Positions 566 to 15,383 of a DNA stretch of 64,000 bases are shown piece by piece. Origin of the DNA: Longimicrobiales bacterium (GTDB taxonomy: Bacteria > Gemmatimonadota > Gemmatimonadetes > Longimicrobiales > Gaopeijiaceae); contig CBDANQ010000029.1 of assembly GCA_965197725.1 (NCBI GenBank), positions 1 through 64,000 of the forward strand, read 5' to 3'. The translations under genes and the position numbers were made by a program. Positions within the stretch are counted from its first letter, which is position 1. Each line of letters begins with the position of its first letter. Under the pieces are notes generated by a model. That model was not told the DNA's origin. It was given only the letters and a program-made list of their open reading frames with translations, and did not search any database.

Positions 566-652
566 CAGTCCTTTACAATTATACTGCAGTCGTTTCAGTC
601 ACTCGTAACATCCCTTGATATCCGCTTCCATCCCCTATATTATGTGGGGATG
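551..652. promoter_or_regulatory. AT-rich att-like/integrase regulatory region
   Basis: 11-bp inverted repeat AAACGACTGCA (551-561)/TGCAGTCGTTT (585-595); three ATCC(C/G) motifs phased 10 bp apart (610, 620, 630); CATCCCC (629-635)/GGGGATG (646-652) hairpin overlapping the ATG at 650. Confidence 0.5.
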
Positions 653-1885
653 AGTACTGGAACAAAAAAGGCCAATCCGCCCCGGAAAACCAAGCCCAAG
701 GGCCGTCATCCCGACAAGGCCCTGTCAGCTGCCTTCGTGCGCACGGCTCCGCCGGGAAGACACGCCGACGGCAACGGTTTGTACCTCTTCGTCCAGCCGA
801 GCGGCACCCGGAGCTGGATTCAACGGCTGGTCATCCGGGGTCGCCGCCGCGAGCTCGGCCTCGGCAGCGTCGCGCTGGTCTCCCTGGCCGAGGCCCGGGA
901 GAAGGCGCTGGCCAACCGTAAGCTGGCCCGCGAGGGCGGTGACCCGCTTGCCGAGAAGCGTCGTGCGCAGGGCGTCCCGAGCTTCGCCGAAGCCACCGCG
1001 CGTGTAGTGCAACAGAAGCAAGCCGGCTGGCGAAGTCGGGTGCACGCCCGCGAGTGGATCTTGACCTTCGAGCGGTACGCCTTCCCGCGCATCGGGAAGA
1101 TGCCGGTGTCGGAGGTCACGAGCGCCGACTTGCTCGAGATCCTCGCCCCCATATGGCACACGAAGGCGGAGACCGCCCGGCGGTTGCGGCAGCGCATCCG
1201 TGCGGTGTTGGAGTGGGCGGTGGCGATGGAGTTCCGGATCGACAACCCGTGCGACCGGATCGGCCCGGTCCTGGGTCCCCAGCATGACGTCGTGCAGCAC
1301 ATGCGAGCGTTACCACATCGCGAGGTGGCCGCGGCCATCCGGACGGCGCGCGGCTCGACGGTGCCGCTGGCCGTCCGGCTGGCATTCGAGTTTCTGGTGC
1401 TGACGGCTGCGCGGTGGGGCGAGGTACGCTGGGCCGAGTGGACAGAGATCGATCGGGCCGAGGGCGTGTGGACCGTCCCGGCCAGGCGGACGAAGTCGAA
1501 CCGGGAGCACCGGGTCCCGCTGTGCGGCCGTGCACTGGAGATTCTGGACGAGGCACGGAAGCTCGTGGAGGGAACCAGTCCGTATCTGTTTCCCAATCGG
1601 GTCGGCAAGCAGCTCGAGGAGAAGCAACTCCGCCGGATGTTCCAGAAGCACGAGATCGCGGCCGTGCCGCACGGTTTTCGCTCGAGCTTCCGCGACTGGG
1701 CGGCCGAGGAGACGGATCATCCGCGCGAGGTCATCGAGGCGGCCCTGGCGCATGTCGTCCAGAACAGGGTCGAGGCGGCCTATCGGCGCACGGACCTGTT
1801 CGAGCGCCGGCGCTGGCTGATGGACGATTGGGCGGCGTATCTCGCGGGCGAGCGTCTGAACCCGGAGGCCGAACCGGCTCGCTGA
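650..1885 (+). CDS. P4-like prophage/genomic-island integrase (arm-binding domain + tyrosine recombinase)
   Basis: ORF 644-1885, likely ATG at 650. DGNGLYL...RELGLGS...VSLAEAR arm-binding domain; catalytic R (AARWGE), K (TKSNREH), HGFR, LAH, AYRR. Confidence 0.95.
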   Translation: MSTGTKKANPPRKTKPKGRHPDKALSAAFVRTAPPGRHADGNGLYLFVQPSGTRSWIQRLVIRGRRRELGLGSVALVSLAEAREKALANRKLAREGGDPLAEKRRAQGVPSFAEATARVVQQKQAGWRSRVHAREWILTFERYAFPRIGKMPVSEVTSADLLEILAPIWHTKAETARRLRQRIRAVLEWAVAMEFRIDNPCDRIGPVLGPQHDVVQHMRALPHREVAAAIRTARGSTVPLAVRLAFEFLVLTAARWGEVRWAEWTEIDRAEGVWTVPARRTKSNREHRVPLCGRALEILDEARKLVEGTSPYLFPNRVGKQLEEKQLRRMFQKHEIAAVPHGFRSSFRDWAAEETDHPREVIEAALAHVVQNRVEAAYRRTDLFERRRWLMDDWAAYLAGERLNPEAEPAR

Positions 1886-1945
1886 TCCGCCGCGCTCGCA
1901 GTGTCGGCGGACGAGTCCGTCAGGCGCTGAAGAGCGGGGGCGCGA

Positions 1946-1984
1946 AGGCTGGCTCACGACCCGTTAGCAGTCATGAGCCAGCCT
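1946..1984. repeat. 15-bp inverted repeat, possibly part of an oriT
   Basis: AGGCTGGCTCACGAC (1946-1960)/GTCATGAGCCAGCCT (1970-1984), 14/15 paired, 9-nt loop; lies just upstream of the mobC relic. Confidence 0.55.
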
Positions 1985-2063
1985 ACCCTTTGGGGCCACG
2001 CTTCGCGGGTCCCCGGCAGGAGCTGGCGAGGGTGGCTCCGCCCCTTCGATCCCCTGGACGCCC

Positions 2064-2136
2064 GCGCTCCGGCAGGCCATGGCGCGCACGCGGCCGGCAG
2101 GTCGCGCGCATCGGCGGCAACCTCAACCACCTCGGG
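2064..2136 (+). pseudogene. mobC: MobC relaxosome accessory protein relic
   Basis: LRQAMARTR followed, after a frameshifting deletion, by RQVARIGGNLNHL, resembling the MobC RIGNNLNQIA motif. Confidence 0.6.
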
Positions 2137-2937
2137 GCAGTTTCGGGCTTGGTCGAGCGCCGACGCCGACCTCACTGGGACGACTTGCCGAGCCACCTAG
2201 CTGGTGAAAAGCCGCGACCGGCGGCCGGATTCGTTGATACGCCGCGCTCCCAGCGGCGCTTGATGGCCTTCCCGCCAGGGATCGATTCAGGGGAGCGACC
2301 CCTCCGCGGAGGTTGGCATGGGCGTGCACATGCCAACCCTCTCCGATGCCGATCGAGGCATCCCAAAAGGGGGGGTCGCTCCCATCTACGGCCGAAAGCT
2401 CCGGAGCAGCGTCGCCGCTCCGGCGGCCGTGCCGCAACTGCAAGACAGCCAGCCACATACGGAAGTGCTGGCGCGCACATGGAATTGGCTTCTCGGTGCA
2501 CATGCACCCCGTTGTCTGATGTGCACTCCCCGATCAGCACCGACCCTCGCTGATCCGCGTTCAAAATCCGCCTCCAGGGAGCCGTCTCGAGCGCCATGTC
2601 GCGAAGCCGTGGATCAACGTTCCGGGAGTCGAGGATCGGTGGAGGTCATTCAGCTCGACGATCCGCTTGAGGCAGGCCTGCAGGTCGCCATACTCCTTGA
2701 GCACCCGGTCATCCTTGGCGCGGATGGCCTGCTCGATTCTGGCGATCTCGCGGCGGGCCGCACGGTCGGGTTCCGGAGCGGCGGAGGGGCCGGATGCTGT
2801 AGATGTGTTGGTCCAGCTCTCGAGGATCGTCCCAGGCCGTAAGGGCGACGCCGAGACCGACGGCTGATCCGAGGACAGCCCGCACGTCTCTGGTCAGCTA
2901 CTGGACTAGCGGGTTCAGAATAGGCTAGGATGCCTCC

Positions 2938-3345
2938 ATGGAACGACAGCTTGCTCACATGCAGATGGTCCAAGCCGTGATCACACGGATGGCTAGCAAC
3001 TCATTCCACATCAAGGGCTGGAGCGTAACGCTCGTCGCGGCTCTCTTCGCTCTCGCTGCCGCCGATGACATCAACGAGTACTTCGTCTGTCTGGCCTACT
3101 TCCCTGCCTTCATGTTCTGGGCGCTCGATGCGTATTGCCTGCGCCAGGAACATCTTTTCCGAAAGCTATACGACCACATCCGGACCCAGAAAGAGTCTAA
3201 GACCGACTTCTCGATGAGCACCACGACGTTTGAGAACGACGTCGACGGAATGTGGAAGGTGGCGTGGTCACCAACATTGAAGATGTTTCATTGCACCCTA
3301 ACCGGCTCGATCATCGTCGTGATGGCGTTGATGATCGTGTTTTGA
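2938..3345 (+). CDS. Small ~3-TM membrane protein, candidate TIR-associated defence effector
   Basis: 135 aa; HMQMVQAVITRMASNSFHIKGWSVTLV...FWALDAY..RQE.LFR.LY pattern; three hydrophobic segments; ends 9 bp before the TIR gene. Confidence 0.8.
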   Translation: MERQLAHMQMVQAVITRMASNSFHIKGWSVTLVAALFALAAADDINEYFVCLAYFPAFMFWALDAYCLRQEHLFRKLYDHIRTQKESKTDFSMSTTTFENDVDGMWKVAWSPTLKMFHCTLTGSIIVVMALMIVF

Positions 3346-3354
3346 CGAGACGAG

Positions 3355-3852
3355 ATGGCCAGACGTACCTTCTTCAGCTTCCACTACAAACCTGACAACT
3401 GGCGCGCCGCCCAGGTCCGGAACATTGGGATGGTCGACGGCAACAAGCCGGTGACAGACAACGAATGGGAGACGATCAAAAAGGGCGGGGATGCCGCGAT
3501 CAATAAGTGGATCGCCGGGCAGATGAAGGGACGCTCCTGCACAGTCGTCTTGGTCGGTAGCAACACCACGGGTCGAAAGTGGATCAACTACGAGATCAGC
3601 CAGTCGTGGAATCAGGGGATGGGCGTGGTTGGCATTCGGATTCACGGTTTGGAGAATTCGAAGGGCCAGACATCCACCTCGGGTGGAAACCCCTTCGATC
3701 ACGTCACATTCACAGAGAGCAAGAAGAAGCTTTCTTCCGTAGTGAAGTGCTACAAACCGGCGGGAGCGAACAGCCAAGAGCGCTATGCCTGGATTAAGAA
3801 ACATCTGGCCAACGCGGTCGAAGAAGCAGCGACAATCCGCAAGGCCAACTAG
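3355..3852 (+). CDS. TIR-domain protein, ThsB/DUF1863-like
   Basis: RRTFFSFHY..DNWRAAQVRN, CTVVLVG, KWINYEI (catalytic Glu retained), G.NPF motifs typical of Thoeris ThsB-like TIRs. Confidence 0.9.
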   Translation: MARRTFFSFHYKPDNWRAAQVRNIGMVDGNKPVTDNEWETIKKGGDAAINKWIAGQMKGRSCTVVLVGSNTTGRKWINYEISQSWNQGMGVVGIRIHGLENSKGQTSTSGGNPFDHVTFTESKKKLSSVVKCYKPAGANSQERYAWIKKHLANAVEEAATIRKAN

Positions 3853-4249
3853 TACTAGCAGCTACAAGAACGCAGGATCACAGAGTGAACCTTTCAAATC
3901 CAGACCTCCCGCAGCACTCAGGATTGGGACTTCAGCTTATCTTTCAACGCCTTAAGCTCGTCAGTCATTTCTGACTCGGGGACGACACTCATCGATTCGA
4001 TTACTATAATTCTGGTGTCCGAGCGTTTTTTGAGATGTGTAGCTGCCAAGGTCGAAGCCGTTGCCTAGTTGTCACCCGGAAAACGGGGCAACAGGAGTCA
4101 CTTCAGAATTTCCCCAGTGGGGCTAGTTGGCGGAAGCTTAACCTCCTACGAGTCTCCCGCTCGGCAGTGGACAAGCTGCCCCGCCAGGTGGTCATCTTCT
4201 CGGGACGAGACAATGCGTATCCGGCGAAGCGCCCCCGGCGGCGCGCGGC

Positions 4250-4621
4250 GCGCGCCACCTCATCGAGCATCTCATCGGCCACAATCTCGATCTGCAGGAG
4301 CTTCTTGACGACGGGGTGATCCATCATCGAAACCAGGTCCCCTTCGATTCGGTCGAAACTGCGGTCCAACAAGTGGACGACTCATTCGGGGCACTGATCG
4401 ACAAGCTCACCGTTATGGACGAGGGTCAGTGGTTAGAGGTGGGCCAGTTCTATGCCGGCGATCACTTGATCATGGAGGCGCCGTGCCAGCAACTCGCATG
4501 GATGATGCTCTTGGACGCGGTGCATCATCGTGGTCAGCTCAGCACCTATCTACGGCCGATGGGTAGTAAGGTGCCGGCGATCTACGGCCCGTCAGCGGAC
4601 GACCAGGGCGAGGGTCACTGA
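4250..4621 (+). pseudogene. DinB/YfiT family protein, 5'-truncated
   Basis: In-frame ARHLIEHLIGH...DAVHHRGQLSTYLRPMGSKVPAIYGPSADD; no start codon or N-terminal part upstream of about 4250. Confidence 0.75.
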
Positions 4622-6331: not shown

Positions 6332-7378
6332 TCAGGTGCGTGTATAGAAGCGTTCGGTGTGGAATGCCTCCCCGTTCTTGAGCATGAAGTAGGTGGCGCG
6401 ACCGATGCGAGCCGCGAGGATGCTGAGCGCCTTGCCCTTGCCGTGGCGGCGCGCGAGCCTCTTGAGATGGCCCTGGCCGCGGACGTTGTCGCGTAGGAAG
6501 AGGACGGCAGCCTCGCTGAACGCCCACTTGAGGTGTGCGTTACCGATCTTGGCTCCTCCGCTGCCGACCCGCTTGCCTGCACTGCGGTGCTCGGGCTTGG
6601 CGAGTCGACAGTAGGAGCTGAAGCGCTGCACTGTGCTGAAGCGAGCGATGTCGTGGATCTCATAGAGCAGCGTGAGCGCCAGGATCCGACCGATGCCGGG
6701 GATGGTTCGGAGCCGCTCCAGCGTGTCGGAGTCGTGGACACGGGCTTCTTCTTCGACCGTACGCTCGAGTTCTCGGATCACGGGGTCGTAGCGATCGGCC
6801 AGGGCGAGGTCCGCCTCAATGGTCCTCTGGATCATGGGATCGTCGAACGCCTGGGCCAGTCCCTCTCGGTTCTTCTTGTAGAGGAGCTGACCCGGGGGCC
6901 GAGGCAGGTTGTACTGATGAAAGGTGTTGCGGACGTGGGCGAGGAGCTCGCCGCGCTTGCGCACGAAGTAGAGTCGGCGCCGGAGCACATCGCGCGTGGC
7001 TCGCATCTGGGGAGGATAGACGTAGGCCACCGGGAACGCACCACCACGCAGCAAGACCGCCGTCTTGTGCGAGTCGATGTGGTCGTTCTTGGCCTTGGCC
7101 CCGTGGATCGCCTTCATGTAGAGCGCATGGCCGAGCACGAAGTGGATCTGCTCACGAGCACATAGATCGGCGAGCCAGTACCAGCAGAAGATGCACTCGC
7201 TGCCCACCACGAGGTCCAAACGGTAGGGCTCGAGGGCGCGAAGCAGTGCCTCGCGCTCACAGCGTAGCCTCTTGTGCAGTCGTATCTTGCCCTGGCCGTC
7301 CAGAACGCAGAGGTAGAGCGTGCGAGCGTGAAGGTCGATGCCACAGTAGTATCGATGCTGGCCGGTGTAGAAGCGCAT
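6332..7378 (-). CDS. IS110-family DEDD recombinase/transposase
   Basis: GIDLH, VGSEC and KNDHIDS (DEDD RuvC-like); IPGIG HhH; HRSAGK catalytic-Ser region; 348 aa, intact. Confidence 0.95.
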   Translation of the reverse strand: MRFYTGQHRYYCGIDLHARTLYLCVLDGQGKIRLHKRLRCEREALLRALEPYRLDLVVGSECIFCWYWLADLCAREQIHFVLGHALYMKAIHGAKAKNDHIDSHKTAVLLRGGAFPVAYVYPPQMRATRDVLRRRLYFVRKRGELLAHVRNTFHQYNLPRPPGQLLYKKNREGLAQAFDDPMIQRTIEADLALADRYDPVIRELERTVEEEARVHDSDTLERLRTIPGIGRILALTLLYEIHDIARFSTVQRFSSYCRLAKPEHRSAGKRVGSGGAKIGNAHLKWAFSEAAVLFLRDNVRGQGHLKRLARRHGKGKALSILAARIGRATYFMLKNGEAFHTERFYTRT

Positions 7379-8387: not shown

Positions 8388-9974
8388 ATGCAAGCGGAAG
8401 GAGGCCGAAAGATGGCCCGCATAGATAGGAAGCACGCAGACACACTCATTCACCTCGGCACCGAAGCCGAGCTATGGCGCACAACCGACGGACGACCATT
8501 CGCAACGGTTGAAGTCGAAGGCGCACACCAAAACCTCGAAGTGGATTCGAACCAATTCCAGCGTTGGCTGACCCGACGCTTTTGGGAGACAGAAGGAACT
8601 GCAGCGAGTGCAGATGGGCTAAGGCAAGCGATGGAGGTCCTTGCCGGGATCTCCGTCCACGAAGGCAGCGAGCACGACGCCTTCATCCGTCTAGCCAGAT
8701 GTGGTGCCAATATCTATCAGGACCTCGGCTGCTCAGAGTGGCATGCGATTGAGATCACGCCGAAGGGGTGGCAGCCCGTTCTTCACCCCCCGGTACGCTT
8801 CCGCCGCTCGCCAGGGTTAGGTGAGCTACCCTGGCCCCAAGCCGGCGGCAGTATGGACGACCTGCGGCCCTTCGTGAACGTCAGGGATGACCAAGACTTT
8901 GTCCTGGCCGTCGCGTGGCTCTTGGGTGCTCTGAATCCAGGCGGTCCATTCCCTATCGCGCTGATTCAGGGTGAGCAGGGGTCCGCCAAGAGCACTCTGA
9001 CGCGAGTGCTAAGGTCGATCATCGACCCAGCTACTCCGGTTCACACAACGAAGCCCTAGAGCGAGCGAGACCTCGTAATCTCGGCGCACAACTCGTGGGT
9101 GCAGGCGTTCGACAACCTTTCGAGTGTCCCCGACTGGCTGTCGGATGCCTTCTGTCGCATCGCAACGGGCGGGGGGTTCAAGACCCGACGTCTCTACCGG
9201 GACACTGAGGAGATCAGCCTCCAGGTGTGCCGACCGCAGATCCTCAACGGTATCGAGGACTTGGCCACGAGGGATGACCTCAGAGATCGAGGTATCCTAT
9301 TCGAGCTGCCAGTGATCCTGGGCCAACGGCGCAAGCCGGAGCGTGAATTCTGGGCCGAATTCGATGAGGCCCGCCCCCGCATTCTCGGTGCGCTCCTGGA
9401 CGCCGCTAGTACTGCGCTTAGGGAGCAGTCGCACGTCGATGTGGAAGAGCTACCCCGCATGGCAGACTTCGCCACCTGGGTCATTGGTGCGGAGAAGGGG
9501 CTGTCGTGGCAGCCAGGCACGTTCCTAGACGCTTATGAGCAGAACCGGAGGGACGCCATTGCCCTTGTGCTGGAGCACAGTCCGTTGGCGTAGAGAATGA
9601 TCCGGTTCGCCGAGGAGAGCATGCCTTGGGACGGCACTCCCACCGAGCTGCATGGGCACATCTGGGGACGCACAATCACTCTCTGGGGTGAGCGCAGCAC
9701 TCCGGCGGCAATGTCCCAAGAACTGAAGCGAATCGCACCGGCGCTGCGTCATGTCGGCGTCGATGTGACCTGGGCCAGAGAGAACGACAGAAATCGAACG
9801 CGGAAGATCGCCGTCCGCGCTGTCCGTGCCGTCCAGAACGAGGCAGGGGGTGGACCCTTGGACCGCGAAGCGTGCGCCGTGGACTCGGTGCCGGAACAGG
9901 AGCGCGTCGCAGAATCGTGGGAAGAAGCTACCGACGAGGCCGTGGCTGACTCTCCTGTGCCCTCGGTTCGCTAG
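8388..9974 (+). pseudogene. Phage/plasmid-type P-loop ATPase (primase-associated helicase-like) with two in-frame TAG stops
   Basis: ORFs 8388-9059, 9099-9593 and 9597-9974 share one frame; Walker A GEQGSAKST, AFDNLS, SDAFCRIATGGGF.TRRLY, PRMADF; TAG at 9057-9059 and 9591-9593. Confidence 0.8.
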
Positions 9975-10027: not shown

Positions 10028-10807
10028 ATGATTAACCAATCCGCTATCGAGTGGACCGACGTAACCTGGAACCCGGTCGCCCCGTGCACAAAGGTCAGCA
10101 GGGGCTGCGACAATTGTTATGCCGCGAGGCCCGCCCGCGAGAAGTTGCGGGACATGTACGTCCCCCGCCTACGGGTCATTCAAACGCCAGAACCCAACCC
10201 AGATCCCTTCGTGGTTAGGATCTGGCCCAAGCGCCTCAACCAGCCGTGGCAGCTCGGAGAGCCTCGGATGGTCCTCGTGAACCCCATGTCGGATCCCTTT
10301 CACATCGACATTCCCGAGAAGATCCAGCGAAGCATCTTCAAGGTCATGCTCCAAGAGGACCGCCATATCTACCAGATCCTCACGAAGCATCCGAGTCGCG
10401 CCGCGAAATTCATCGAGCGTAACGCAGACCTCTTCGCGAATGGCATCGCTCCCGACCATATCTGGATCGGCACCTCAGTCGAAGACATGGACGTGATCCA
10501 TAAAGTGGATCACCTGAGGGCGGTACCGACGGAGGTGCGATTCCTGTCCTGCGAGCCGCTGCTCGGTCCCCTTGAGATCAATCTCAACGGCATTCATTGG
10601 GTCATCGTCGGGGGTGAGAGCGGGGTCGGGCATCGGCCCATGGAGGAGGAGTGGGTGGCCGACATTCGAGATCAGTGCGTCTGTCAGGGCGTTCCTTTCT
10701 TCTTCAAGCAGTGGGGAGGGCTGACCCCACAGGCCGGGGGGCGCCTCCTTGAGGGACTCACATGGGACGAATATCCCGTCGGGGCGGAACGTCTGCTCGC
10801 GGCGTGA
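10028..10807 (+). CDS. Phage Gp37/Gp68 (DUF5131) family protein
   Basis: SAIEWTDVTWNP, CTKVSRGCDNCYA three-Cys motif, FLSCEPLLG, WVIVGGESG, PFFFKQWGG. Confidence 0.92.
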   Translation: MINQSAIEWTDVTWNPVAPCTKVSRGCDNCYAARPAREKLRDMYVPRLRVIQTPEPNPDPFVVRIWPKRLNQPWQLGEPRMVLVNPMSDPFHIDIPEKIQRSIFKVMLQEDRHIYQILTKHPSRAAKFIERNADLFANGIAPDHIWIGTSVEDMDVIHKVDHLRAVPTEVRFLSCEPLLGPLEINLNGIHWVIVGGESGVGHRPMEEEWVADIRDQCVCQGVPFFFKQWGGLTPQAGGRLLEGLTWDEYPVGAERLLAA

Positions 10808-10810
10808 ACA

Positions 10811-11182
10811 ATGTTCCCCGCTGATCTGCCCGAAGCGTGGCGCGAACTCGCCCTCCAGCAGCGGGACCTGGGGGCCGATCCCCAGGCCCGCACGTTGGAG
10901 TGGTGCGCGGACACGCTCGAAGGATCGCTCCAAGACGGTGAGGATGAGCTACTGAACCTCCAAGAGGCTGGGGCGATTTCAGGCTATTCCCGACGCCACC
11001 TCGGACGACTCATGAAGGCCGGTGCGATTCCCAACTCTGGCACGCCGGACAGCCCCCGGCTGCTCCGATCCGATCTACCCCGAAAGCCGGGTCATGGCAT
11101 TGCGCCGCCGCGACCCGAAGCAGCATCCTCGATAGTGCAGGTTGCGCGGGTCATCGCAACTAGCAGTCCGTGGAAGAAATAG
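10811..11182 (+). CDS. Excisionase-like HTH DNA-binding protein; C-terminus altered by IS insertion
   Basis: LLNLQEAGAISGYSRRHLGRLMKAGAIP HTH; directly upstream of the integrase once the IS is removed. Confidence 0.65.
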   Translation: MFPADLPEAWRELALQQRDLGADPQARTLEWCADTLEGSLQDGEDELLNLQEAGAISGYSRRHLGRLMKAGAIPNSGTPDSPRLLRSDLPRKPGHGIAPPRPEAASSIVQVARVIATSSPWKK

Positions 11183-12287
11183 GTTCCCAGCGGATGATGG
11201 GTGGGAGAGAAGGCAGACACGCGGCGGTTGTCGTAGGTCGGCTTCTGCGCGTCCCGGTTGTTCTTCCATTTCCGGCGCCCGCGGTTGGGCTCGCTCACAT
11301 AGCTGCGCAGCTCCCGCTCCTTCACGCCCGTCATGGTCTTGTTCGAGTGGTAGCCTTTGTCGGCCACCACTTCCTCGGGCTCTACCTGCACTACTTCCAG
11401 CTGCCGCTCTGCCTCGTCCAGCGTGTTGGGCAGCGACGCCACATCTCCCCCGTCCATCGTCTGCACCGTCACCGCCACAAGCGCACCGGTCTCCATGTCG
11501 ACCGCCTGCTCCAACTTGTGCGCCAGGCGCGTCCTGCCGTCCTTCATCTTCGTGATCCGCGCCTCCGGGTCGTGCGGATGCACCCAGTCCTTGTTCGAGC
11601 CCTTCTTCGGACGCTTCCGGTCCAGCGTCGTCAGATCCTTGCGCGTCGGCGTCTCGATCCCCGACGCCCGGGCCACCTGCTCCAGCCATTCATCGTAGCC
11701 CAACCCGTCGTCGCGCCGCACGATCGTGCGCATCGCCGCATTCGCCTCCAGCGTCGTCGAGTCGACGCCCAGCGTCTTGCCGCTCAGCAACCCCGACCCC
11801 TTCAGCAGCTCCAGCACCCGCCCGAACACCGCCGCGTGCGCTTCCACGCTCAGGCGCTTGCGCGTCTTCGACAGGGTCGAATGCTCCGGCGGGTTCTTCG
11901 CCCACCCGTATCCCAGAAACTCACGCAACGACAACGAGTCCCCACACCGCCAGGCAATGCCCCGCTCCGAGCCGATCCCTTCCAGGTAGCCCACCATCAT
12001 CATTCGGAAATACACCCCGGGAGCAATCCCCGGCCGACCCCGATTGTCCGCGTAGAACTCACGGCATGCCTCTTCCGCGAACTCGTCAAACCCGCTTTTC
12101 GCCAGAAGCTCGTTCAAGGCCCGGTAGAACGGGTTGTCCAAGGCCCGAATCTCGCTCGCCACCACGAACATCTCGCCCTGCCGAGCCTCGGGCCGCTTGC
12201 CTACCGCCATCGCCGTCCTCGCTGCAAAAACCCTCGTGTCCTCCTGATTTAACACAACAGCGATGACCGGACTTTATCCACGGTCTG
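11164..12287 (-). mobile_element. IS1182/IS5-like insertion sequence with internal deletion
   Basis: CTAG at both flanks (11160-11163, 12288-12291); terminal IRs CAGTCCGTGGAAGAA and TTTATCCACGGTCTG. Confidence 0.85.
11220..12210 (-). pseudogene. DDE transposase (DUF772 + DDE), C-terminally truncated
   Basis: GRPGIAPGVYFRM...SERGIAWR, GVDSTTLEANA, VADKGY; similarity stops after TYDNRR, so the final catalytic Glu region is missing. Confidence 0.8.
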
Positions 12288-12299
12288 CTAGAGGTGAAG

Positions 12300-13212
12300 A
12301 TGATGGCTCGACGTAACAGAAGGCGGAAGAAGTACTGGTCCTACAACACCGGTGAGCGCGGCAGGAATTGGGTTCGCTGCTACGAGGACGGCAAGAATGG
12401 CAAGCTGTACTTGGAGTGGCACGCGGGCGACCGGAGACGGCGCGTCCTTGTTCAGACCCTGGATCGAGAAGAGGCGAAGCTACGTGCAGATGAGCTGGCC
12501 ACCGAGATCGGCTCTCGTGCTGTGGTGGACCGTGCGGTGTGTATTTCGATCTCCGACCTGCTCACGCTTTACGGAAAGGAGGTGACACCGATCAAGGGTG
12601 AGTCCAAGGCCGAGCACGACCGGCGTGCCACGAGAGTGTGGCGGGCCTTCTTCGACGCGCAGGCCGAACCTGACCGTCGATCAACGCGACAGCCTGACAC
12701 ACTCGATAGAACCGACTGGGATCGTTTCTGCGCATGGAGACGCGAGGGGATGATCCCCGGTTGGACCCGAGGTGTTGGCGACCGTCAGGTGGAATACGAC
12801 CTGAAGTTCATGCTGGCGGTCCTCAACTGGGCCAGGGGGCACAAGCTCGACGGTCGTGCAGTGCTTGAAACGAACCCTTGGAAGTCAAAGGTTCGCCGCA
12901 ACCAGGGTTGGGAGATGCCAAAGGAACTGAACCCTCACCGGCCATCAATGCCGGACGATATTCACGAGGGGCTCATCGCGAAGGCACCGAACGAGGAGTT
13001 CGGGGCAATGCTGATCTTGGAGCGGGAGACCAAGCGTCGGAATAGCTCGATTCGACGGTTGCGGTGGTCTGACATCGACTTTAAGGAGGAGACGATTACC
13101 TGGCGTGCGGAGACGGACAAGACAGGCAAACGTGGTATCACACCGCTGACCGCCCCAGCCTTGGAAGTGTTGCGTGCCCGGACCCGAGGTATCGGCACAG
13201 TGCCGATCTTTG
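12300..13212 (+). pseudogene. Phage-type tyrosine integrase truncated by IS21
   Basis: ETKRRNSSIRRLRWSDIDF...AETDKTG...PLT (R and K region) present; HxxR/Y region absent because the IS21 begins at 13213. Confidence 0.8.
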
Positions 13213-13371
13213 TGTTAGCGGCCTTCCAATATTGCACACATGTGGCCATCGAAAATTGCACACTTGGCGCTTTGACCTAGCGGGCGGGAGAGTGGGGATG
13301 TAGGCACCACCCCGAGCGATCTTCCGGCCGATCCACTCACTTGGCGCCTCCACCGAGAACGTGGAGGTGCA

Positions 13372-14400
13372 ATGATCGGAAGGGAGAAGCGCGTGCTGCT
13401 CCGTCATTACCTCGAGCAGGGGATGAACAAGGCGGTGATCGCCCGGGATCTGGGGGTCAGTCGCCGTACCGTGTACCACTGGATAGAGACCGGTCAACTG
13501 GACCGGGAGTTGGACGAAGAGCGTGTCGGGTACGGTCCGAGATGTCTGATGCCGTCGAAGCTGGATCCGTACAAGCCGTTGATCGACACGCGTCTCAAGG
13601 AGTACCCGAAGCTCACGGCTGTACGGCTCTTCAAGGAGGTCCGGGCCGCTGGCTACCCGGGCAGTTACAACCAAGTGAAGCGCTATGTACGCAAGGTCCG
13701 GCCTCGACCCCCAGAGGAGCCGGTCGTGCGCTTCGAGACGGCGCCTGGGCGTCAGGGCCAGGTGGACTTCGCCCACTTCCGGCTACCGTGGGGCAAGCGT
13801 TACGCACTAATCGTCGTGCTGGGCTACTCGAGGCTGCTGTGGGTTCAGTTCTACACCCGGCAGACCATGAAGGCCCTGATGCATGGCCTGGAGTCTTCGT
13901 TTTCCTACTTCGGCGGCGTGCCCTCAGAGCTTCTGTTCGACCAAATGAAGGCGGTCGTCATCGAGGACGGTCGATACGACGATGGTGCCCTCGTCGAGAA
14001 CCCGGAGTTCATGCGCTACGCCTACCACTGGAACTTCAGGATCCGCGCGTGCCGACCCTATCGGGCTCAGACCAAGGGCAAGGTGGAGCGGCCGATCCGC
14101 TACCTCAGGGAGAGCTTCTTCTACGGGCGCACCTTCACGTCGGACGACGATCTCAACGCGCAGGCCCTTCATTGGCTTGAGACGGAAGCCAATGTGCGCA
14201 GCCACGGAACGCTGAAGGAGCGGCCCCTCGATCGCTTCGAGCGTGAACGACTGCTCCTCGAGCCCTTGGCGACTCGCCCGTATCACCCCCTCGTCCTGCC
14301 TCCGGATCGCTCCTCACCCGGCACGACGTCCTTGCCGGCCATCCACGTCGAGCGACGTCCCCTCACGGCCTATGCCCAGATCGCGGGAGGGGACCGATGA
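13372..14400 (+). CDS. istA: IS21 transposase
   Basis: HTH, RFETAPGRQGQVDF, FDQMK, RAQTKGKVER. Confidence 0.95.
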   Translation: MIGREKRVLLRHYLEQGMNKAVIARDLGVSRRTVYHWIETGQLDRELDEERVGYGPRCLMPSKLDPYKPLIDTRLKEYPKLTAVRLFKEVRAAGYPGSYNQVKRYVRKVRPRPPEEPVVRFETAPGRQGQVDFAHFRLPWGKRYALIVVLGYSRLLWVQFYTRQTMKALMHGLESSFSYFGGVPSELLFDQMKAVVIEDGRYDDGALVENPEFMRYAYHWNFRIRACRPYRAQTKGKVERPIRYLRESFFYGRTFTSDDDLNAQALHWLETEANVRSHGTLKERPLDRFERERLLLEPLATRPYHPLVLPPDRSSPGTTSLPAIHVERRPLTAYAQIAGGDR

Positions 14401-15239
14401 AGGCTGCCGCTCGCTCTCGCCGTGACCGGATCCGAGCCCAGCTCGCCGATCTCAAGATGCCCGGTGCGCTGGAGGCCATCGACGACGTCCTCACCGGGGT
14501 CGATGGCGGAGGCGTGACGGCCTCGGAGGCCATCGAGCAACTCCTCGGTGCCCAGATCACGCTGCGCAACAACCGCCGCCTTCAGGCTGCGATGCGCTCG
14601 AGCCGGCTACCGGGCATCAAGACCCTCGACGACTTCGACTTCAGCTTCCAGCCCTCGATCAAGCGCGAGCAGATCGACTCGCTCCACGAGCTCGGCTTCT
14701 TGGAGCGTAAGGAGAACGTGATCTTCCTCGGCCCTCCGGGCGTCGGCAAGACGCATCTCGCGATCAGCCTCGCCATTGCCGCGGCTCAGAGCGGGCGCAG
14801 AGTCTACTACGGCGCTCTGGCCGACCTCATCACCTCGCTCGAAGAAGCCAAGACCACCGGCCAGCTGGGACGCCGCCTCAAGATCCTCACCTATCCTTCG
14901 CTCCTGGTCATCGACGAGATCGGCTACCTGCCGGTCAGCCAGACCGGCGCAATGCTCTTCTTCCAACTCATCAACCGGCGCTATGAGCGCGCATCCACTG
15001 TGCTGACCTCCAATAAAGGCTTCGAGGAGTGGGGCCAGATCTTGGGCGACGAGGTCATGGCCGCTGCGCTCATCGATCGCCTGCTGCATCACTGCCATAT
15101 CGTCAACATCCGCGGCAGCAGCTACCGGATGCGCAAGCACACCGACCTCTCCAAGATCCTCCACTCGCCTCCTGCGGAGTCGAGCCCTTCACCCCCGAAG
15201 AGAAAGAGAGCAAGAGCAAAGGAGAAAACGACGAACTAG
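14397..15239 (+). CDS. istB: IS21 ATP-binding helper
   Basis: GPPGVGKTHLA, IDEIGYLP, LIDRLLHH, GSSYR. Confidence 0.95.
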   Translation: MKAAARSRRDRIRAQLADLKMPGALEAIDDVLTGVDGGGVTASEAIEQLLGAQITLRNNRRLQAAMRSSRLPGIKTLDDFDFSFQPSIKREQIDSLHELGFLERKENVIFLGPPGVGKTHLAISLAIAAAQSGRRVYYGALADLITSLEEAKTTGQLGRRLKILTYPSLLVIDEIGYLPVSQTGAMLFFQLINRRYERASTVLTSNKGFEEWGQILGDEVMAAALIDRLLHHCHIVNIRGSSYRMRKHTDLSKILHSPPAESSPSPPKRKRARAKEKTTN

Positions 15240-15383
15240 AGGCTCGTCACCTCCGCCAAGTGTGCAATTTTCGATGGCCAGACCTGTGCAGCTTTCGATG
15301 GCCGTTGACATCAGCCTGTTGCTCCCGTGACACGATGCCTAGCTTCGGGCCCGCATCAACACTCGACGCCCCGGGGCAATCGT

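Follow-up and report, generated by a model that had tools for sequence, protein, structure and literature searches.

The window analyzed here, a stretch of 64,000 nucleotides of Longimicrobiales DNA, carries near its start two genes that lie on the + strand and are separated by 9 nt. Gene A (ORF at 2938..3345) encodes a hydrophobic protein of 135 aa, and gene B (ORF at 3355..3852) encodes a 165-aa TIR protein. B belongs to the Pfam family ThsB_TIR (PF08937), with a score of 96 bits where the cut-off is 21 (E = 1.5e-27). In PADLOC it matches both ThsB1 (E = 6e-68) and PDC-M50B (PDLC04688; E = 4.4e-65), and it has no NCBIfam match. A matches PDC-M50A (PDLC04686; E = 7.1e-47, residues 1–131 of 134) and falls in no Pfam or NCBIfam family. 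The genome contains one copy of each gene. A sequence-only reading of this DNA had described a small gene lying just upstream of a ThsB-like TIR, and that arrangement is borne out. The same reading had suggested that the system was possibly uncharacterized. This suggestion falls, since the pair corresponds to PDC-M50 in PADLOC and the combination of ThsB with a protein of three transmembrane (TM) helices has been validated according to the accessible text of a December 2025 preprint (Yirmiya et al., bioRxiv 10.64898/2025.12.03.692087).

The pair had also been placed in an integrase island of lower GC content than the host, and both features were recovered. The GC content of A and B is 55.1% vs. 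64.6% for the genome, and a value at least as low occurs in 0.15% of 5,925 equally sized windows of the genome. Upstream lie a full tyrosine integrase with an Arm DNA-binding domain (644..1885, + strand, from Pfam) and, judged by eye, an integrase end at 1–565. Positions 1936..2831, to which no strand is assigned, hold a remnant of mobile-element sequence that, by sequence similarity, is repeated elsewhere in the genome and in relatives. This remnant matches G000:C12:4616-5077 at 94%, the similarity ends at 2831, and loose ends occur at 2831 also in contigs X2 and X4; this position is likely the left edge of the low-GC cargo. The DNA of the pair was matched in 0 of 40 relatives and is therefore variable cargo. 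No tRNA, Rfam match, terminator, or att-like repeat was found. Contigs from two RNA-library runs cover 3246–3472, across the gene junction (X20), and 3545–3842 (X19), at low depth, and these may be DNA.

Several other features lie downstream. A sigma-70-like match (10/12) at 3982–4010, just 3′ of the TIR gene, faces away toward a DinB fragment at 4316–4621. Two consecutive ORFs at 8388–9593 (223 and 164 aa) resemble a single P-loop replication gene, now broken, from an integrated element; their sole Pfam match, AAA_16, is weak. A DUF5131 protein at 10028–10807 has PADLOC matches to PDC-M41B and PDC-M30B. Three IS-like elements occupy 6332–7378, 11092–12255, and 13213–15310, with a further recombinase-like ORF at 12294–13280. 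The last of the three, in which 57-nt inverted repeats flank two ORFs, is presumably IS21-like. As had been claimed from the letters, no SIR2, SLOG, Macro, or caspase effector was found among the ORFs of 1–16 kb scanned (10 Pfam, 10 PADLOC). Genome-wide, a search for type I ThsA (SIR2-SLOG) gave no match in the 89% complete assembly and detected its control; the corresponding Macro search was empty, and its control was likewise blank.

The claim that B keeps a catalytic Glu within the motif WINYEI held up in comparison with solved structures. The best structure match of B is PDB 8WCF (E = 1.7e-35), and the ThsB structures 6LHY and 9B7D are homologous to B (E = 3e-20) and align with B through FFSFHY and WINYEI. 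In this alignment, Glu80 of B (codon at 3592..3594, + strand) falls on the Glu of RWVRYEI in 6LHY/9B7D, which is E85 by our own count. That Glu of ThsB is reportedly catalytic, as Ofir is said to have found in 2021. Glu80 is thus the predicted catalytic residue of B, and B itself is predicted to be a signal-making enzyme. In addition, B belongs to the same TIR family as type I Thoeris, being 49% and 45% identical to TIRs that lie beside SIR2 genes in loci L161 and L165, respectively; the SIR2 gene of L161 is ThsA1 (PADLOC, E = 2e-192). The pair differs from type I in that no ThsA was found in the locus or the genome and in that A is a predicted membrane protein, not an NADase. In two further loci, L164 and L167, TIRs of the group 44–49% identical to B adjoin phospholipase genes. 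These genes (L164:4009-5625 and L167:3671-5287), each in a multi-TIR locus, are annotated as CBASS cGAMP-activated phospholipases.

For A, hydropathy and modeling together support the three TM helices that had been proposed. Three stretches of the protein are hydrophobic: near residues 25–43, 49–67, and 115–133, Kyte-Doolittle hydropathy over 19-mers peaks at 1.5, 1.5, and 1.7, respectively, and the corresponding family means are 1.6, 1.6, and 2.3. An AlphaFold2 model built on 134 sequences (pLDDT 96, pTM 0.86) has helices at residues 2–40, 47–83, and 112–134, arranged as a hairpin of the first two, a short linker, and then the third. The three hydrophobic stretches fall on these long helices, which points to a three-TM topology. 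A homo-tetramer prediction, with a score of 0.07 and a mark of 0.42, gives no verdict either way. Foldseek with the model returned nothing at E ≤ 0.001, and VIA-align, with a best Z of 9.0, returned generic helical hairpins and ESCRT-III-like coils; a search by sequence found no solved relative of A. The motifs RMASNSF..KGW and LDAY..RQE..FR, which had been singled out as conserved, are so throughout the family, their key residues being present in 105–110 of 110 alignment rows. In helix 1 these are R17 (109/110), K26 (108/110), and W28 (110/110), along with the conserved N21 and S22; in helix 2 they are D64 (107/110), E71 (108/110), and R75 (105/110).

The allele in the window has rare residues at two conserved sites, and these may weaken it. 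C67 is found in 1 of 110 rows, 108 of which have F or Y at that site, and H72 is found in 2 of 110, with R or K in 101; the cluster mates of A keep R72, and some have F67. These residues are also what one might see if A and B were a decaying copy that no longer functions. Pointing the same way, no strong promoter match was found upstream of the pair, and a second small TIR of the nearest relatives is missing here. In those relatives (L013 and L015), the order is A, a 124-aa TIR, and a 165-aa ThsB; the 124-aa TIR, which has a Glu within LKEV, is found in L011, L013, and L015 (about 1083–1458, minus strand) and is absent from the window. Several related loci (L012, L014, L021, and L022) are themselves decayed or broken. 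However, both reading frames of the pair are whole; B keeps E80, and A keeps 22 of its family's 23 most conserved positions. Moreover, an identical gene A is present in contigs from two runs of other studies, so C67 and H72 are real alleles. Decay is a very improbable account of the pair.

The sequence-only reading had named co-occurrence of the two families elsewhere as a check, and such co-occurrence is widespread. One search found 648 relatives of A, and the same figure for a Priestia homologue was 2,590. The A family is present in 128 plasmid records, in 14 of 301 genomes of its own phylum, and in 7 of 301 genomes of a Bacteroidota-centered sample (the center genome is counted in both); canonical DUF2270 is present in 1 of 301 genomes of the latter sample. 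Family members also occur in Bacillus thuringiensis and other Bacillaceae, a scan of genome contigs aimed at Bacillaceae giving one locus, and on E. coli plasmids they lie beside a TIR of 277–287 aa. Pooling plasmid, genome, viral, and metagenome loci gave 131 distinct loci once 2 duplicate loci, 6 identical proteins, and L079 (no full match) had been dropped. A same-strand TIR lies within 250 nt of the A-family gene in 97 of these by seed search, and Pfam confirmation added six, for a total of 103 of 131 loci with an adjacent same-strand TIR or SEFIR gene. When the loci are restricted to those flanked by 700 nt or more on each side, the figure is 69 of 84. These counts include the window itself and L162, which was fetched through its TIR, and kin among the loci are not independent. 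The TIR is downstream of the A-family gene in 72 loci and upstream in 25, and two TIR types are present in 17 of the 131, which is common in Thoeris loci.

Both the order of the genes and the kind of TIR vary in this family, the partners belonging to 12 seed classes. Such free exchange of partners, on both sides, is to be expected of a diffusible signal. The surface of A is conserved and its TIR partners differ widely, so a diffusible signal suits the data better than a fixed interface. Direct binding of A to the TIR, the second mechanism that had been put forward for this pair, is disfavored, given that TIRs of at least 12 seed classes partner the effector, on either side. These observations also bear on a reading in which B is itself toxic, by depleting NAD+, and A acts as its sensor or anchor through direct contact. 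The accessible text of the preprint allows that TIRs of unverified types are possibly NADase effectors, and some partners of the A family are large receptor-like TIR or SEFIR proteins. Nevertheless, B is of the ThsB1 type, close to TIRs that serve ThsA, and the A family keeps one charged surface while its TIR partners vary in length and class. We give this reading very little credence.

The neighbors of the three-TM gene include more than short TIRs. By Pfam, LRR-Roc-COR-TIR genes adjoin it in L009 (1473–3986) and L064 (1–2304), and this eukaryote-like receptor TIR may signal to an A-family effector. Other genes beside it encode a fusion of nucleoside-deoxyribosyltransferase-like and prokaryotic STING parts (L070:5396-6439), an NDT-like protein (L104:720-1166), a TIR-nSTAND1 protein (L121:5602-6336), a DUF4062 protein (L154:1418-1876), and a SLOG cluster 3 protein (L102:1-438). 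One could conceive of PDC-M50A as a minimal receptor in the membrane that reads ADPR-derived signals, is very widespread, and is separate from ThsF, although we hold this to be unlikely. Its signal makers would then be, with similarly low probability, short ThsB TIRs, TIRs of 260–290 aa, and SEFIR proteins. The LRR-Roc-COR-TIR (L009, L064), TIR-STAND (L121), and nucleoside-deoxyribosyltransferase-like (L070, L104) proteins would be makers too, which is again doubtful.

Our preferred reading is that A and B constitute a type V Thoeris antiphage system, to which we assign a probability of roughly 0.7; that they carry out Thoeris-type signaling of some kind is very likely. In the accessible text of the preprint, seven new Thoeris types were validated, and type V consists of ThsB and ThsF, a three-TM protein annotated as DUF2270. 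That text also reports that the type V TIR makes 3′cADPR upon infection, that added 3′cADPR was toxic in one of two type V systems and did not activate the second, and that Tad1 weakened type V defense. It describes an AlphaFold3 model of ThsF as a heptameric ring with positive pockets. By its count, about 1.2% of genomes carry type V, with 470 systems in all; these are said to be enriched in Bacteroidota, and the tested ones are from Bacillaceae. It places DUF2270-linked TIRs in one cluster with TIRs of types I and IV. The pair resembles type V in having two genes, a ThsB TIR with its catalytic Glu and a small partner with three predicted TM helices, and in the lack of a SLOG or Macro sensor. 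It resembles it further in a TIR clade common with type I and in a weak DUF2270 resemblance within the A family. It differs in that A has no Pfam DUF2270 match and that the tested ThsF is likened to it by description, not by sequence. It differs also in that A and B are known here from their genes, whereas signal, oligomer, and defense belong to the strains of the preprint.

By these likenesses A is likely ThsF, and the DUF2270 link was pursued at several levels, with remote-homology tests that rest on ∼400 family sequences. A itself did not reach the Pfam DUF2270 (PF10028) cut-off of 25 bits and gave no match. DUF2270 shares first place among the weak Pfam matches of the A family, being found for 29 of 134 relatives (best E = 4e-4) and for 4 of 61 in a narrower set; DUF3278 is matched by 29 of 134 as well, with a better best E of 2.5e-6. 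Comparison of the A family with DUF2270 by hhalign was weak (probability 17.5, E = 0.0014), pairing KGW with TNW and LDA with E-RR, and our own hhalign run scored 19.8, against 21.2 for the best of 40 column shuffles. L170:1420-1881 encodes a 153-aa membrane protein that has no TIR neighbor, scores 23 bits on both the A-family and the DUF2270 profiles, and matches PDC-M50A at E = 0.0014; it was chosen for its DUF2270 match, and the PDC-M50A side alone is independent. Canonical DUF2270 genes had a TIR neighbor in 0 of 9 loci, with flanks of up to 1.5 kb, two of them truncated. None of the strains named in the preprint was found among 20 A-family proteins looked up by cluster or among the named matches, and in the literature searched, its tested strains (B. 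thuringiensis DAR 81934 and Bacillus sp. 1NLA3E) are linked to Thoeris in that preprint only.

These results leave room for a Thoeris system that follows the same logic with an effector other than ThsF. In that case, A would be another membrane effector of the preprint, of the validated type IX or a putative type, or one unlisted there, possibly responding to another ADPR-derived signal. This is favored by the link of A to DUF2270 being below significance and by the 29 putative effector types in the accessible text of the preprint, several of them TM proteins, a text in which the type IX effector is not described. The named family nearest to A in the Atlas is 8xMP, at 0.85, as a lead only. On the other side, three TM helices, weak DUF2270 matches, wide spread, and a TIR clade shared with type I fit type V. 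In addition, among 30 ThsB loci of the Bacteroidota-centered sample, two of the three three-TM neighbors belong to the A family. The third, found in 1 of the 30 loci near a ThsB TIR (L175:3-374, minus strand), is of a different three-TM family with no PADLOC match, so a TIR accompanied by three TM helices does not by itself mean the A family. We judge it improbable that the effector is something other than ThsF.

It is useful to compare the type V assignment with other catalogued systems. A and B match both PADLOC models of PDC-M50 over their whole length and lie adjacent, and we found no difference from it. PDCs are 145 candidates described as untested in the accessible text of Payne et al. 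(bioRxiv 10.1101/2024.01.29.577857). The term PDC-M50 occurred in no full text searched, the only literature found on DUF2270, ThsF, or type V Thoeris was the preprint, and a link between PDC-M50 and type V was not found in print. The accessible parts of PMC13069673, PMC13712596, PMC13232231, and PMC13728456 hold no word on type V or ThsF. Type VII Thoeris (ThsB with the SLATT effector ThsH) and type II (TM-Macro), as far as the accessible descriptions go, are similar in that a membrane effector reads a TIR signal; they differ in that no SLATT or Macro is among the 25 families listed for 134 A-family members. The E. coli systems TIR-I to TIR-IX (Wang et al., PMC11350192) are, in the accessible material, TIR systems of two genes each, and a TM domain occurs in one of them. 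By eye, the accessible TIR-IV, VII, and VIII sheets of that paper have no accession in common with the cluster members listed. TIR-IV, whose taxa overlap those of the plasmid matches, is at most a possible counterpart, the Priestia accessions in the accessible material being different (QSF36399/400 vs. QSX23453/454). The pair is thus a new example of an architecture that has already been described and catalogued and, very probably, also validated.

Under the type V reading, the following sequence of events may be proposed. The pair and its family provide the two genes and their family assignments, an intact Glu80, strong linkage, and exchange of TIR partners. Phage sensing, the signal, ring formation, and membrane damage are modeled on other strains in the preprint. 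First, the ThsB TIR B would sense phage infection through a phage component. Second, B would convert NAD+ to a signal of the cyclic ADP-ribose kind, most likely 3′cADPR by analogy with type V and type I TIRs of the same clade; across the A family as a whole, the partner TIRs are highly diverse, and the signals they make may differ as well. Third, 3′cADPR would bind the predicted three-TM protein A. Helix limits of the model and conservation suggest that the signal site is a charged cluster in which R17, N21, S22, and K26 of helix 1 would face D64, E71, and R75 of helix 2, immediately beneath TM1 and TM2, where the membrane borders the cytoplasm. Finally, A would form a ring and breach the membrane, and the infected cell would stop or die. 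The neighborhood data and the published account of type V are both in line with the original proposal, in which a membrane-disrupting effector uses its conserved cytoplasmic helices to read the TIR signal.

If A and B are indeed type V Thoeris, they would add one more lineage, the Gemmatimonadota, to a described defense type and would tie PADLOC's PDC-M50 to a validated system. The alignment and model name a few candidate pocket residues: R17, K26, D64, E71, and R75. The only part that may surprise specialists is how broad a set of partners the effector has. Should PDC-M50A instead prove to be a receptor distinct from ThsF, which we hold to be unlikely, it would represent a further Thoeris type with sensor and pore combined in 135 residues, and large receptor TIRs would thereby be marked as signaling enzymes.
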